Made by a program: the position numbers and the translations under genes. DNA of 64,000 nucleotides from Escherichia coli (GTDB lineage: Bacteria; Pseudomonadota; Gammaproteobacteria; Enterobacterales; Enterobacteriaceae), in the NCBI RefSeq assembly GCF_048403405.1, contig NZ_CP183129.1; one strand, written 5' to 3'. Positions 1-8,810 of the stretch are shown one piece after another. Within the stretch, counting starts at the first letter, position 1. Each line of letters begins with the position of its first letter. The notes beneath the pieces were generated by a model, which made no database searches, had not been told where the DNA came from, and saw only the letters and a list, made by a program, of their open reading frames with translations.

Positions 1-920
1 CATACCGCCTCCAGCCGGATACCGTTATCGGCACCGTACTCTGTACCGGTGGGCAGCGTGTCGGGGAAAAACTGAGAAGAGGAAACAGAACGGGGACTGG
101 CCGGAGAAGATAAAGAAGACTCGCGCTGTTTACGGAAGGCTTTCGCCCGCTGCGCCTGTGTGGTCAGCGCCAGATGAAAACGGCGGCCCGCGCCGTCCGT
201 CACCCCCGTCACCGCGCCCGCCGCTTCCCCCTCTGCCGCCCGGTGGAAGGCCAGCGTCCGCCCGAAGCCGTCCACCACGCCCGTCAGCACCCGGTATGCG
301 GGCGGCTCCGGCGGCAGCACCTCGTCCGCCTCCGGCACCCGCTCCGGCCAGCCGAGTATCCACCACGGCCCCTGAAGGCTGTTTGTCGCCAGGTACACAT
401 GCGGGCTTAAGCGGAGACTCTCCGGCAGCACCTGCCAGAGCGCGCTTAGCGGCTGCGAACTGTGCTGCTCCGCCACCCCGCCCCTTGCCAGCCAGAACGA
501 CTCGCTGCGGCTGTAGCTTATCTCGCCGGGAAACAGCGGCTCAAAGTGAATGCTCCTGCCGCCACTGTCGTTGAGTATCAGTTCCCGCTCATGAACCTGT
601 AAGCGGATATCGAAGGGCGCTTTCCAGCCGGGACCAAACACCCCCACCGGCGCGGGTGTCCTGGTCCGGTAGCTGCTGTAGGCGCGGGAAAGAATAAACG
701 GCAACGGGCCGGGCAGCGCAAGATCCGTCTCGCCCGGCAGCACCTTCGCACCCAGTAGCGGGTTCACCGGGTTACCCTTCTGCTCCTCCACCGGGCTGTT
801 GGGACACACCGAGCAGGCCACTCCCGTCGGCGCACCTATCAGCACCCCCGCTGAACCCTGCACAATATCCAGTCCCTTGCGGGTCATATCGCCCTGTCGC
901 GCCGCCGGTTTTCCGCTCAT
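1..920 (-). CDS. Rhs family protein, N-terminal part (partial; continues beyond window start)
   Basis: Minus-strand frame opens with ATG at 918-920 and has no stop to position 1; translation MSGKPAARQGDM...GSAGVLIGAPTGVACSVC...NPVNPLLGAKVLPGETDLALPGPLPFILSRAY is the conserved Rhs N-terminus; GC-rich. Not in ORF track because it runs off the edge. Confidence 0.8.
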   Translation of the reverse strand, partial: MSGKPAARQGDMTRKGLDIVQGSAGVLIGAPTGVACSVCPNSPVEEQKGNPVNPLLGAKVLPGETDLALPGPLPFILSRAYSSYRTRTPAPVGVFGPGWKAPFDIRLQVHERELILNDSGGRSIHFEPLFPGEISYSRSESFWLARGGVAEQHSSQPLSALWQVLPESLRLSPHVYLATNSLQGPWWILGWPERVPEADEVLPPEPPAYRVLTGVVDGFGRTLAFHRAAEGEAAGAVTGVTDGAGRRFHLALTTQAQRAKAFRKQRESSLSSPASPRSVSSSQFFPDTLPTGTEYGADNGIRLEAV

Positions 921-1341
921 GGTTTATTCCTTAAATTATTTATGGTTTTATTCTGAGTGCAATCCATACTGATTCATAACCAGTGAATAAGATTTCCCCG
1001 AATAATCTATATAAATTAGCGAAGTCCTCTTCACTAATTAACCGTAAAATCCCGTACCAATGAAATATAAAAATAACCACCCACACAAATTTATTGCAAA
1101 TATTATTTATTATTGTATATACATCATTCACTGAACGTTCTCAAACTGCATACCTTAGAACCATCAATTAAAGCCACAACAAAAAAAATCGATTACTTTA
1201 TGTCGCATGACAAATATGAATTACATATTAATCAACCTTAAAAACAATCATCTCTTATAATTAACAGCATACCATGAGAAACACAAAATCAATTTACCAT
1301 GCATACCAGGAGCATAATTAACCTCTCACCGCAGGGCGAAA

Positions 1342-3495: not shown

Positions 3496-3761
3496 ATGCC
3501 CCTCACAATCTTTTAAAGATTAAGTGTAGGACAGTACACAGGTTAACCAGCAAAAGGATTTGTCATTTTTTCGTCAGTTGTATTATTCCCCTTCAGGATT
3601 GTAAGGGGATGTTTTGCATCGTTTATCGATAACGGGTAGGATGCTGCGCCGATAGTTTTATACCCATAAAGAATAATGGTGATAACTATCATCGCCAGGA
3701 TGAATAAACATTGTTCATGGCAACTTATATGACTTTTTCATTAAAGCAATCAGGGAGAGCA

Positions 3762-5261
3762 ATGAGTAAACACGACACCGACACTTCAGATCAACACGCC
3801 GCGAAACGCCGCTGGCTTAATGCCCACGAAGAGGGGTATCACAAAGCGATGGGCAATCGCCAGGTACAGATGATCGCCATTGGCGGCGCGATTGGTACGG
3901 GTTTGTTTTTAGGCGCGGGAGCCCGACTGCAAATGGCGGGGCCAGCACTGGCACTGGTCTATTTGATCTGCGGCCTGTTTTCATTTTTTATTCTGCGTGC
4001 ATTGGGTGAGCTGGTGTTACACCGCCCTTCCAGTGGCAGTTTTGTCTCTTATGCCCGTGAGTTTTTAGGAGAGAAAGCCGCTTACGTTGCAGGCTGGATG
4101 TACTTCATCAACTGGGCGATGACGGGGATTGTCGATATTACCGCCGTCGCTCTGTATATGCATTACTGGGGTGCGTTTGGCGGCGTGCCGCAGTGGGTCT
4201 TTGCGCTCGCTGCGCTGACCATCGTTGGCACCATGAATATGATCGGTGTGAAATGGTTTGCCGAGATGGAGTTCTGGTTTGCGCTTATTAAAGTGCTCGC
4301 CATTGTTACCTTTTTGGTCGTGGGTACAGTGTTCCTCGGTAGTGGTCAGCCGCTGGATGGCAACACCACTGGTTTTCATTTAATTACCGATAACGGCGGC
4401 TTCTTCCCCCACGGTTTGCTGCCTGCGCTGGTGTTGATTCAGGGCGTAGTGTTTGCTTTTGCCTCCATTGAAATGGTGGGTACAGCTGCCGGAGAATGTA
4501 AAGATCCGCAGACCATGGTGCCTAAAGCCATTAACAGTGTGATTTGGCGTATTGGCCTGTTTTACGTCGGCTCCGTGGTGTTGCTGGTTATGTTATTGCC
4601 GTGGAGCGCATATCAGGCGGGGCAAAGTCCGTTCGTGACGTTTTTCTCTAAACTGGGTGTGCCATATATCGGCAGCATTATGAACATTGTGGTGCTGACC
4701 GCTGCCCTCTCCAGCCTGAACTCAGGTCTGTACTGCACCGGACGTATTCTGCGCTCAATGGCGATGGGCGGTTCCGCACCGAGTTTTATGGCGAAAATGA
4801 GTCGTCAGCATGTGCCGTATGCCGGGATTCTGGCGACACTGGTTGTGTATGTCGTCGGCGTATTCCTCAACTATCTGGTGCCGTCGCGCGTATTTGAGAT
4901 TGTGTTGAACTTCGCGTCGCTGGGAATCATCGCCTCATGGGCGTTTATCATCGTGTGCCAGATGCGCCTGCGTAAAGCGATTAAAGAAGGCAAAGCCGCG
5001 GATGTCAGTTTTAAACTGCCTGGCGCGCCCTTCACTTCCTGGCTGACATTACTGTTTTTGCTGAGCGTCCTGGTGCTGATGGCGTTCGATTACCCGAACG
5101 GGACTTATACCATCGCGGCGCTGCCGATTATCGGTATTCTGCTGGTTATAGGCTGGTTTGGTGTGCGCAAACGCGTTGCTGAAATTCACAGCACTGCGCC
5201 AGTCGTCGAGGAAGATGAAGAACAACAGGAAATTGTGTTTAAGCCTGAAACGGCGAGTTAA
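3762..5261 (+). CDS. ansP: L-asparagine permease (APC family)
   Basis: Track ORF 3711..5261; start trimmed to ATG 3762 (MSKHDTDTSDQHAAKRRW..), 499 aa; multi-pass membrane protein with amino-acid permease motifs; position next to yncE. Confidence 0.93.
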   Translation: MSKHDTDTSDQHAAKRRWLNAHEEGYHKAMGNRQVQMIAIGGAIGTGLFLGAGARLQMAGPALALVYLICGLFSFFILRALGELVLHRPSSGSFVSYAREFLGEKAAYVAGWMYFINWAMTGIVDITAVALYMHYWGAFGGVPQWVFALAALTIVGTMNMIGVKWFAEMEFWFALIKVLAIVTFLVVGTVFLGSGQPLDGNTTGFHLITDNGGFFPHGLLPALVLIQGVVFAFASIEMVGTAAGECKDPQTMVPKAINSVIWRIGLFYVGSVVLLVMLLPWSAYQAGQSPFVTFFSKLGVPYIGSIMNIVVLTAALSSLNSGLYCTGRILRSMAMGGSAPSFMAKMSRQHVPYAGILATLVVYVVGVFLNYLVPSRVFEIVLNFASLGIIASWAFIIVCQMRLRKAIKEGKAADVSFKLPGAPFTSWLTLLFLLSVLVLMAFDYPNGTYTIAALPIIGILLVIGWFGVRKRVAEIHSTAPVVEEDEEQQEIVFKPETAS

Positions 5262-5292: not shown

Positions 5293-5373
5293 ATTCAAAT
5301 TACTGACGAAGGTGCCGGATACGGCGTGATAAAAGTCAGGCAAGTCTCACCGTTTTCACCCTCGCCATATCTA

Positions 5374-6435
5374 TTACAGCGCAATACGAATCACATCATC
5401 CGGCTGGGTTGCTTCCTGCTGTTTAGTGGATTTTTGTTTCACACTGACATACAGCGTTTTACCATCGGCAGACAGCGCCAGGCTGTTCGGATGAGTCGGC
5501 GTATCGAACGTTTTCACCACTTTATAGCTTTTCGCGTCAATCACACTGACTTTACCTGCCTGACGATGCGTTACGTAGGCTTCATTACGCGCCGGGTTAA
5601 ACAGCACAGCCAGTGATTCCGGTGCCGCAACCTTCGCCAGAATATTGCCATTACGGGTATCGACCACTAACACTTCTGCGGCTTTAGAATCGGTGATAAA
5701 TGCACGCTGCCTGGCGGTATCAAGGCTAATGTTGATAAAGAAGTGCTCTTTGCCGTCATCCAGCAGCTTTTTACGGCTGAGGATTTTATTGTCGGCGGTG
5801 TCGATGGTAATCAATTCGCCGTCAGCGTTAGTGGTGTAAAGACGTTTGCCTTTGCTATCCAGCGCCAGACCGGTACTCATTTTACCGGTGTTCTGGATGG
5901 CGGTTTTCAGTTTGATATTCTCGCCATCAACGACCCAAATCACGCTCTCTTTACCAATACCACTGATGTAAACGGTGTTCGTGGCATCATCAGCTACCAG
6001 CTCACGCGGTTGCAGCGGGCGCACCTCTTCCGTGCGCTTACGATCATCCAGCACCAGACGGCCTTTCACTTCGCCCGTTTTGGCATCTATCGCCGTGACC
6101 GCGCTGTTTACAGTGTTACCAAACCACAACGTCTGAGTCGTGTTATTGATGGTGGCACCAAACGGCTTGAGATCGTTATGGATCGCCTGCGTCACTTCCA
6201 GAGTAACCGGATCAAGACGATAAACCACGCCGCCTTTATCCAGTTTGCGGCTTTGCGAAGTGGCGAGCCACAGCGCGTTCTCCTGCTGGCTATAAGCCAT
6301 TTCGTAGGCACCTTTACCTACCGCTTTACGCAGCATTTCTTCTGCAGCCTGCGTACTGAATGATGAAGCAACAAGCAATGAACCTAACAGTAATGAACCA
6401 CGCAGGCGCGATGAAAACAGATGACGTAAATGCAT
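5374..6435 (-). CDS. yncE: periplasmic beta-propeller protein YncE
   Basis: 353 aa ORF with N-terminal signal peptide (MHLRHLFSSRLRGSLLLGSLLVASSFSTQA) and repeated propeller-like segments; K-12 synteny. Confidence 0.9.
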   Translation of the reverse strand: MHLRHLFSSRLRGSLLLGSLLVASSFSTQAAEEMLRKAVGKGAYEMAYSQQENALWLATSQSRKLDKGGVVYRLDPVTLEVTQAIHNDLKPFGATINNTTQTLWFGNTVNSAVTAIDAKTGEVKGRLVLDDRKRTEEVRPLQPRELVADDATNTVYISGIGKESVIWVVDGENIKLKTAIQNTGKMSTGLALDSKGKRLYTTNADGELITIDTADNKILSRKKLLDDGKEHFFINISLDTARQRAFITDSKAAEVLVVDTRNGNILAKVAAPESLAVLFNPARNEAYVTHRQAGKVSVIDAKSYKVVKTFDTPTHPNSLALSADGKTLYVSVKQKSTKQQEATQPDDVIRIAL

Positions 6436-6522
6436 GACGACTCCCTTTGATGAACCGATATTTTTGCTGCTTCACAATGCTTCGCTAAGCGTAATCATCG
6501 TTACGCTCTTGTTATAAATGGG

Positions 6523-6541
6523 AATGGTAATCATTATTTTC
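6523..6541. promoter_or_regulatory. putative Fur box in yncE/yncD divergent promoter region
   Basis: GGGAATGGTAATCATTATT matches 15 of 19 positions of Fur consensus GATAATGATAATCATTATC; sits between a periplasmic protein gene and a TonB-dependent receptor gene. Confidence 0.4.
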
Positions 6542-6676
6542 TCAAATGTGGAGCATTTCTTGCCGTTACGACTACAATTTTCTCAATTACTTAACGTATC
6601 GTGCCGTTTCGTTTTCCATATATTTACAATTTTATTACCATGGCGGCGTTTTCCCATTCTTAACTTGGCTTTTTTC

Positions 6677-8779
6677 ATGAAGATTTTTTCCGTCCGACAG
6701 ACCGTTTTGCCCGCACTGCTTGTCCTTTCCCCCGTTGTTTTTGCCGCTGATGAACAGACCATGATTGTCAGTGCCGCACCGCAGGTGGTTTCAGAACTGG
6801 ATACCCCAGCAGCCGTGAGCGTGGTGGATGGCGAGGAGATGCGCCTGGCAACACCGCGCATTAACTTGTCCGAATCACTGACCAGCGTGCCTGGTTTGCA
6901 GGTACAAAACCGGCAGAACTATGCGCAAGATTTACAGCTGTCGATTCGCGGATTTGGCTCCCGCTCCACTTACGGAATTCGCGGTATTCGCCTGTATGTG
7001 GACGGTATTCCCGCCACCATGCCCGACGGACAAGGGCAAACATCCAACATCGATTTAAGCAGTGTACAAAATGTGGAAGTGCTGCGCGGCCCCTTCTCTG
7101 CTCTGTATGGCAACGCGTCTGGCGGTGTAATGAATGTCATCACCCAGACCGGACAACAGCCACCAACCATTGAAGCCAGTAGTTACTACGGCAGTTTTGG
7201 CAGCTGGCGCTATGGGCTGAAAGCAACAGGCGCAATGGGCGACGGCACTCAGCCTGGCGATGTCGATTACACCGTCTCAACCACGCGCTTTACGACCCAC
7301 GGCTATCGTGATCATAGTGGCGCACAGAAAAATTTAGCCAATGCCAAACTGGGCGTACGCATTGATGACGCCAGCAAATTAAGCCTGATTTTCAATAGTG
7401 TGGATATCAAAGCAGATGACCCAGGTGGGCTAACCGAAGCAGAATGGAAGGCGAATCCGCAACAAGCGCCACGCGCTGAACAGTACGACACGCGAAAAAC
7501 CATCAAGCAAACTCAGGCTGGGTTGCGCTATGAACGTAGCCTGAGCGCACAAGATGATATGAGTGTGATGATGTATGCCGGGGAGCGAGAAACGACCCAG
7601 TACCAGTCAATCCCGATGGCACCACAACTTAACCCGTCGCATGCGGGCGGCGTGATTACTCTGCAACGCCATTATCAGGGGATAGACAGCCGCTGGACAC
7701 ACCGTGGCGAGCTGGGCGTTCCGCTCACGTTCACTACCGGCCTGAACTACGAAAACATGAGTGAAAATCGCAAAGGCTACAATAACTTCCGCCTGAATAG
7801 CGGCGTGCCGGAATACGGGCAAAAAGGTGAGTTGCGCCGTGACGAACGCAATCTGATGTGGAACGTCGATCCCTATTTGCAGACACAGTGGCAGCTGAGC
7901 GAAAAACTGTCGCTGGATGCTGGCGTGCGCTACAGCTCCGTATGGTTTGATTCCAACGACCATTACGTTACTTCGGGTAACGGCGATGACAGCGGTGATG
8001 CCAGTTATCACAAATGGCTACCTGCCGGTTCGTTAAAATATGCAATGACCGATGCCTGGAATATCTATCTGGCAGCCGGGCGAGGTTTTGAAACGCCGAC
8101 GATTAATGAGCTGTCTTATCGTGCTGACGGTCAAAGCGGTATGAACTTTGGTTTAAAACCATCCACCAACGATACAATTGAGATCGGCAGTAAAACGCGT
8201 ATTGGTGATGGGCTGCTTAGTCTCGCATTGTTCCAGACCGACACCGATGATGAAATTGTAGTCGATAGCAGTAGCGGTGGGCGTACGACTTACAAAAATG
8301 CCGGAAAGACCCGTCGTCAAGGCGCTGAGCTGGCATGGGATCAACGTTTCGCGGGAGATTTTCGTGTAAAAGCGTCCTGGACCTGGCTCGATGCGACCTA
8401 TCGCAGCAATGTTTGCAATGAACAGGATTGTAACGGTAATCGGATGCCAGGGATCGCCCGTAATATGGGCTTTGCGTCGATAGGTTATGTACCGGAGGAT
8501 GGCTGGTATGCAGGTACGGAAGCGCGTTATATGGGCGATATTATGGCAGATGATGAAAATACGGCCAAAGCGCCGTCTTATACTCTCGTCGGCTTATTCA
8601 CCGGGTATAAATACAATTACCACAATTTAACTGTGGATTTATTTGGTCGTGTCGATAATTTATTCGATAAAGAATACGTTGGTTCTGTCATTGTCAATGA
8701 GTCAAACGGGCGATATTACGAACCTGCGCCCGGGCGAAATTATGGTGTCGGCATGAATATTGCATGGCGATTTGAGTAA
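6677..8779 (+). CDS. yncD: TonB-dependent outer membrane receptor YncD
   Basis: Track ORF 6518..8779; start trimmed to ATG 6677 (MKIFSVRQTVLPALLVLSPVVFA signal peptide), 700 aa; C-terminal ..AWRFE with terminal aromatic residue typical of beta-barrels. Confidence 0.9.
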   Translation: MKIFSVRQTVLPALLVLSPVVFAADEQTMIVSAAPQVVSELDTPAAVSVVDGEEMRLATPRINLSESLTSVPGLQVQNRQNYAQDLQLSIRGFGSRSTYGIRGIRLYVDGIPATMPDGQGQTSNIDLSSVQNVEVLRGPFSALYGNASGGVMNVITQTGQQPPTIEASSYYGSFGSWRYGLKATGAMGDGTQPGDVDYTVSTTRFTTHGYRDHSGAQKNLANAKLGVRIDDASKLSLIFNSVDIKADDPGGLTEAEWKANPQQAPRAEQYDTRKTIKQTQAGLRYERSLSAQDDMSVMMYAGERETTQYQSIPMAPQLNPSHAGGVITLQRHYQGIDSRWTHRGELGVPLTFTTGLNYENMSENRKGYNNFRLNSGVPEYGQKGELRRDERNLMWNVDPYLQTQWQLSEKLSLDAGVRYSSVWFDSNDHYVTSGNGDDSGDASYHKWLPAGSLKYAMTDAWNIYLAAGRGFETPTINELSYRADGQSGMNFGLKPSTNDTIEIGSKTRIGDGLLSLALFQTDTDDEIVVDSSSGGRTTYKNAGKTRRQGAELAWDQRFAGDFRVKASWTWLDATYRSNVCNEQDCNGNRMPGIARNMGFASIGYVPEDGWYAGTEARYMGDIMADDENTAKAPSYTLVGLFTGYKYNYHNLTVDLFGRVDNLFDKEYVGSVIVNESNGRYYEPAPGRNYGVGMNIAWRFE

Positions 8780-8786
8780 TTACCTT

Positions 8787-8810
8787 GATGCCCGGTATTT
8801 GCCGGGCATT
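8787..8810 (+). terminator. hairpin downstream of yncD stop (could alternatively be the IS200 left subterminal hairpin)
   Basis: GCCCGG-tattt-GCCGGGC followed by ATTTAATT. Confidence 0.4.

Follow-up and report, generated by a model that had tools for sequence, protein, structure and literature searches.

The segment 6514..6538 of the window, a 64,000-nucleotide stretch of an Escherichia coli chromosome, is almost certainly a real Fur operator, already described, that serves the yncE promoter and is composed of two overlapping 19-bp boxes placed 6 bp apart. This is the usual arrangement of a Fur hexamer array. Published data mapped onto the window demonstrate that Fur occupies the operator and that expression of yncE depends on Fur; the segment matches the Fur consensus and is conserved across Enterobacteriaceae. 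The earlier note had proposed iron regulation by Fur at this promoter, and the published ChIP and fur-mutant expression data, in which such regulation was already documented, bear this out. The divergent gene pqqU (formerly yncD) is not a regular Fur target and is regulated either not at all or marginally.

The yncE/pqqU locus and its Fur box

Several E. coli chromosomes carry the region 5300..8800 with 100% identity, and 5413 of 5426 complete genomes contain it. The gene names yncE and yncD used in the earlier note agree with the annotation. The intergenic region between them (6436..6676) is 241 bp long, as it is in K-12; there the counterparts are pqqU at 1520963..1523065 (minus strand) and yncE at 1523307..1524368 (plus strand). 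The strain differs from K-12 by six intergenic substitutions, all located in the pqqU-proximal half, while the yncE-proximal half is identical. YncE is a seven-bladed beta-propeller protein that carries a Sec signal peptide and is exported by the Sec route. For pqqU, an ORF start at 6518 was rejected as merely an in-frame upstream ATG, the start of the gene being 6677. The genes and the Fur-like sequences between them are as follows:

5374..6435, minus strand: yncE, identified from the ORF, its translation and the RefSeq annotation; 353 aa, ATG at 6435
6677..8779, plus strand: pqqU (formerly yncD), annotated; 700 aa, ATG at 6677; TonB-dependent PQQ importer, divergent from yncE
6520..6538, no strand assigned: primary Fur box, GGGAATGGTAATCATTATT; 15/19 against the consensus GATAATGATAATCATTATC; 85-103 bp upstream of the yncE ATG
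6514..6532, no strand assigned: second Fur site, overlapping the first with a 6 bp offset, ATAAATGGGAATGGTAATC
6525..6539, no strand assigned: best 7-1-7 inverted repeat, TGGTAATCATTATTT; 11/14 against TGATAATnATTATCA; centre C6532

A Fur-box-like sequence is thus present in the yncE/yncD intergenic region, as had been noted, but it lies 3 bp away from the position first given. The 19-mer at 6523..6541 (AATGGTAATCATTATTTTC), which had been credited with a 15/19 match, scores 12/19 against the consensus on either strand. This interval shares the centre C6532 with the best 7-1-7 repeat, so the core of the element was covered. The primary box, identical in K-12 (NC_000913.3 1523204-1523222) and situated 139 bp from the pqqU ATG, is the only site in the 64 kb window that matches the consensus at 15 or more of 19 positions. 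Per window, dinucleotide shuffles yield 0.18 sites of this quality; when the intergenic region alone is shuffled, 0.2% of the shuffles get to 15/19. The three-hexamer NATWAT sum of the operator is 12/15.

A 19-bp Fur matrix (19.4 bits) was built from the best site of each of 17 classical K-12 Fur-controlled promoters, with yncE excluded; the training promoter regions were picked using published ChIP-exo coordinates. With this matrix, 6520..6538 scores 14.6 bits and 6514..6532 scores 14.0 bits, ranking second and third in the window. The leave-one-out scores of the 17 training sites range from 6.2 to 24.3 bits with a median of about 19, so the yncE site is a mid-to-weak yet typical member of this set. 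The 14.6-bit score alone is not significant window-wide: whole-window shuffles yield 0.77 sites of at least 14.6 bits per 64 kb, and because this many equal matches are expected, the score by itself proves nothing. When only the intergenic region, which is AT-rich, is shuffled, P is 0.012 for the best score and 0.00025 (0.025% of shuffles) for two sites of at least 14 bits. In the Fur matrix scan that had been suggested as a check, the site thus stands out from the background locally but not over the whole window.

The top matrix match in the window lies elsewhere, at 47807..47825 (GGAAGTGATAATGATTTTT, 20.5 bits), inside an hrpA-like helicase ORF of 1300 aa (44591..48493, minus strand), where it encodes the KIIITSAT helicase motif (IIITSAT). 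The published MG1655 ChIP-exo peak list contains no peak at this hrpA position, and the match is a coding-sequence decoy. The matrix score alone was rejected as proof of a Fur site, given both the number of matches expected by chance and this stronger decoy.

A further Fur-like site (3672..3690; 14/19, 10.2 bits) is located just upstream of an ansP-like ORF (3711..5261, plus strand) that is convergent with yncE. According to published fur-mutant data, ansP decreases in MG1655 (log2 -1.39) and in strain W (-2.23), but not in W3110; the decrease possibly arises from this site or from read-through interference by derepressed yncE.

Fur binding, expression and conservation

Binding of Fur upstream of yncE has been found by ChIP (PMC4676285), including in CFT073 and MG1655 (PMC7157518). 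A nine-strain ChIP-exo study lists an MG1655 peak at v2 coordinates 1521238-1521250 (PMC10164565), which converts to approximately 6516..6528 of the window, inside the composite Fur box. The assignment of the peak rests on the v2-to-v3 conversion, for which an offset of 1976 was used and checked against the fhuE and yddA sites. Coordinates and not labels are needed here, as the gene labels on the MG1655 sheet of Dataset 2 of that study are shifted by one row from P37 on; the peak at the tonB position carries the label acnA, and P44, the intergenic yncE peak, that of adhP. Fur peaks between yncD and yncE are also listed for W3110 and EC042 (PMC10164565). A second MG1655 peak (v2 1520944-1520980, approximately 6786..6822 of the window) falls inside pqqU, where there is no matrix match above 4 bits, and was treated as a flanking shoulder like those at fhuA, entC and cirA.

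Expression data agree with the binding. In fur mutants, yncE is up in eight of nine strains, with log2 changes of 3.10, 8.14, 5.30, 5.51, 5.22, 4.20, 3.65 and 5.07; the range from 3.10 in MG1655 to 8.14 in W3110 corresponds to 9- to 280-fold. The increase in the strain W fur mutant is 42-fold, and iron limitation induces yncE 16-fold. The two kinds of data that the earlier note had named as a check, Fur ChIP and fur-mutant expression, thus show binding at the box and derepression of yncE. The Fur site of yncE is credited to McHugh et al. 2003 by Wang 2015 and PMC8896160; yncE is not mentioned in Chen 2007 or in Revisiting Fur Regulon 2023.

The conservation of the box was assessed by scanning one genome per species, which gave 80 yncE loci from genera including Escherichia, Citrobacter, Salmonella, Enterobacter, Klebsiella, Raoultella, Leclercia, Lelliottia, Kluyvera and Atlantibacter. 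Upstream sequence of at least 150 bp was available for 77 loci, and in 70 of them, spanning more than 20 genera, the best matrix match in the 300 bp upstream is located at -84..-97 from the yncE ATG. The seven exceptions are one Pseudescherichia locus and two others at -43 to -47, one Trabulsiella locus at -212, and three of five Kluyvera loci at about -267. Upstream scores of orthologues reach 24.5 bits, as in GATAATGAGAATAATAATC, and the variants shift towards the Fur consensus; in many orthologues the register of 6514..6532 is the better one, also with scores of up to 24.5 bits. As a control, the best match in 900 bp of yncE coding sequence does not exceed 7.2 bits in any locus except one. 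In a 79-sequence alignment, column conservation is 0.95 for the box versus 0.57 for the upstream flank and 0.68 for the downstream flank. Within E. coli, a 71-bp segment is present in 5410 of 5426 genomes.

In 67 of the loci, divergent pqqU is found 229-281 bp away. Nine Citrobacter loci (L025, L026, L028, L030, L033, L035, L036, L040 and L094) have no pqqU/yncD, and all nine keep the Fur box at an unchanged distance from yncE; in L026, an mcbR-like GntR gene (581..1246) is located directly upstream and ends about 250 bp upstream of yncE. Because the box is kept at the same distance where pqqU is absent, the operator is assigned to yncE.

Promoter, leader and direction of control

The promoter scan gave no minus-strand match for yncE at its threshold. 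A candidate promoter below that threshold, TCCACA-17 nt-TACCAT, has an 8/12 match:

6547..6552, minus strand: candidate -35 hexamer of yncE, TCCACA, lying in the conserved block GAAATGCTCCACAT
6524..6529, minus strand: candidate -10 hexamer of yncE, TACCAT, lying inside the Fur box

Of 78 upstream regions of orthologues, 42 contain the pattern nCCACA, 16-18 nt, TAnnAT; in each of them the first hexamer reads TCCACA and the spacer is 17 nt. Both the candidate -10 (6529..6524) and the spacer of this conserved TCCACA-17-TACyAT arrangement fall under the Fur box. From the position of the hexamers, transcription would probably start near 6517, giving a leader of about 82 nt. The block GAAATGCTCCACATT (6545..6560, minus strand), just upstream of the Fur box, is conserved about as well as the box and holds the candidate -35; the rest of the block may serve as an UP element or be bound by an activator, MarA being listed for yncE.

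The following mode of control is proposed. When iron is sufficient, Fe2+-Fur dimers would occupy 6514..6538, and since the operator covers the probable -10, the spacer and the transcription start of yncE, RNA polymerase would be excluded and yncE repressed. When iron is scarce, Fur would leave and yncE would be transcribed 9- to 280-fold more, with RyhB, itself freed from Fur control, adding about 3-fold via the yncE leader. We infer steric occlusion as the mode of repression, together with the exact hexamers and the transcription start.

The operator might also act in both directions, repressing pqqU directly and placing PQQ import under iron control, but this is improbable. It would account for the rise of pqqU in fur mutants of W3110 (log2 +2.95, p=2.7e-51) and EC042 (+2.02), both of which are listed with the shared intergenic peak; on the other hand, pqqU is unchanged in MG1655 (+0.12) and strain W (-0.10), although yncE is up 42-fold in the latter, and only two of the nine strains have it as a responding member of the regulon. 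A weak sigma-70-like plus-strand match, TTCACA-16-AATCAT (6471..6498), would give a pqqU start near 6505, so that the box, at about +10..+34, could act as a roadblock, but a match of this quality is at chance level (0.9 expected). The pair yncD/yncE appears in a review's list of head-to-head pairs co-purified in MAPS, possibly via overlapping UTRs. Structural and uptake papers, in contrast, describe YncD, which is the PQQ importer PqqU, as unresponsive to Fur (PMC7193533; bioRxiv 2022.06.07.495086). The distance of 139 bp between the box and the pqqU ATG, the conserved pqqU-proximal blocks (approximately 6588-6642) that do not overlap the box, and the nine Citrobacter loci likewise argue against control in both directions.

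The neighbouring TonB-dependent receptor, which the earlier note had taken as a clue to iron regulation, was therefore misleading. The data do not bear out a Fur-regulated iron transporter: expression of pqqU does not change in the MG1655 and strain W mutants and rises modestly in those of W3110 and EC042 only, and the substrate reported for it is PQQ and not an iron-containing compound. According to the literature, pqqU does not contribute to growth when iron is limiting.

Two observations concern the surroundings of pqqU. The TTCACA-16-AATCAT match lies inside the yncE leader and faces pqqU, so that, if it is used, the 5' UTRs of pqqU and yncE overlap. The pqqU-proximal conserved blocks CTTAACGTAT, ATATTTACAA and ATTACCAT (6588..6642, plus strand) lie at a distance of 50-100 bp from the Fur box; the pqqU promoter may be among them, for example with TACAAT at about 6625..6630.

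That the box arose by chance in an AT-rich promoter, its conservation stemming from the -10 and spacer or from a site of another regulator such as MarA, is highly improbable: equal matrix scores are indeed expected about once per 64 kb, the hrpA coding sequence holds a better match, overlap with the inferred -10 means that promoter constraint could contribute to conservation, and MarA is listed beside Fur for yncE, but this reading is already contradicted by the published ChIP-exo/ChIP-seq peaks at the box in several strains and by the large changes of yncE expression in fur mutants, and it is also opposed by the 6-bp register of the two sites and by orthologue variants that move towards the Fur consensus.

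Downstream of the Fur operator, the putative leader of yncE carries two conserved elements:

6488..6507, minus strand: conserved hairpin of the yncE 5' leader; 7 bp, stem AGCGTAA, loop CGATGA, TTACGCT
6467..6483, minus strand: RyhB-complementary leader block, GAAGCATTGTGAAGCAG; -48..-32 from the ATG; complementary to the RyhB core (CACAUUGCUUCC)

All seven pairs of the hairpin show compensatory changes across 38 Enterobacteriaceae, and the loop is mostly conserved and of the CCATGA type. Of its cells, 91% are paired, whereas shuffles reach 70.7% and slid partners 35-53%. The excess of G-U/U-G cells (33) over A-C/C-A cells (7) speaks for an RNA of yncE sense orientation. A search of 6380..6720 against Rfam gave no family matches.

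The duplex of the 6467..6483 block with RyhB nt 31-62 has a predicted energy of -23.1 kcal/mol, and 1.15% of shuffles are as good. In most orthologues sampled the position of the block is unchanged, with a median of -25 kcal/mol. RyhB is known from published work to activate yncE, and the complementarity suggests that this block is the likely pairing site for that activation; according to a review, CopraRNA ranked the RyhB-yncE interaction poorly. The Citrobacter loci without pqqU also retain the GCTCCACAT block, together with the hairpin and the RyhB-complementary block. An anti-antisense model, in which a conserved inhibitory helix would form between the RyhB site and the start of yncE, was rejected, as RNAalifold gave no consensus pairs. 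Only tentatively, and rather doubtfully, may the hairpin and the RyhB block be regarded as an undescribed cis-regulatory RNA module for the activation of yncE by RyhB, with the operator forming, in some strains, a roadblock to pqqU transcription begun in the leader and so coupling PQQ uptake to iron.

Comparison with known systems

The yncE Fur operator is real, conserved and ordinary, and it is not new; beyond annotation, its significance is slight. The case illustrates that a genuine Fur operator can be spotted from sequence alone, even though the TonB-dependent receptor next door misled. Of the E. coli proteins induced by iron starvation, YncE is one of the more strongly induced, and it is a vaccine or diagnostic antigen in Escherichia and Salmonella. 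The retention of a control region with Fur, RyhB and hairpin elements across Enterobacteriaceae points to an iron-linked role of YncE still to be found.

Like the classical E. coli Fur operators (fhuA, fepA-fes, fepB-entC, cirA, fiu, fhuF, sufA and ryhB), the yncE operator has a 19-bp box of the GATAATGATAATCATTATC type in overlapping copies with a 6-bp register. Like them, it controls an iron-starvation gene, is occupied by Fur in iron-replete cells and loses repression in fur mutants; it would overlap the core promoter if the candidate hexamers of yncE are the right ones. It differs from most of them in being weaker (14.6 bits versus the leave-one-out median of about 19), and, unlike classical Fur targets, yncE encodes a product without a demonstrated role in iron uptake.

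The combination of Fur repression and RyhB activation, with a conserved RyhB-complementary block in the leader, resembles the coherent control of cirA and shiA by Fur plus RyhB. A point of difference is that RNAalifold shows no conserved pairing in yncE by which the RyhB site and the region around the start codon would form an inhibitory helix.

The operator is the same element as the recorded Fur site of yncE (McHugh et al. 2003, as credited; Seo 2014 and Gao 2023, ChIP-exo; Beauchene 2015; Banerjee 2020): the K-12 sequence is identical over the yncE-proximal half of the intergenic region, the published peak lies inside the box, and the two do not differ in substance.
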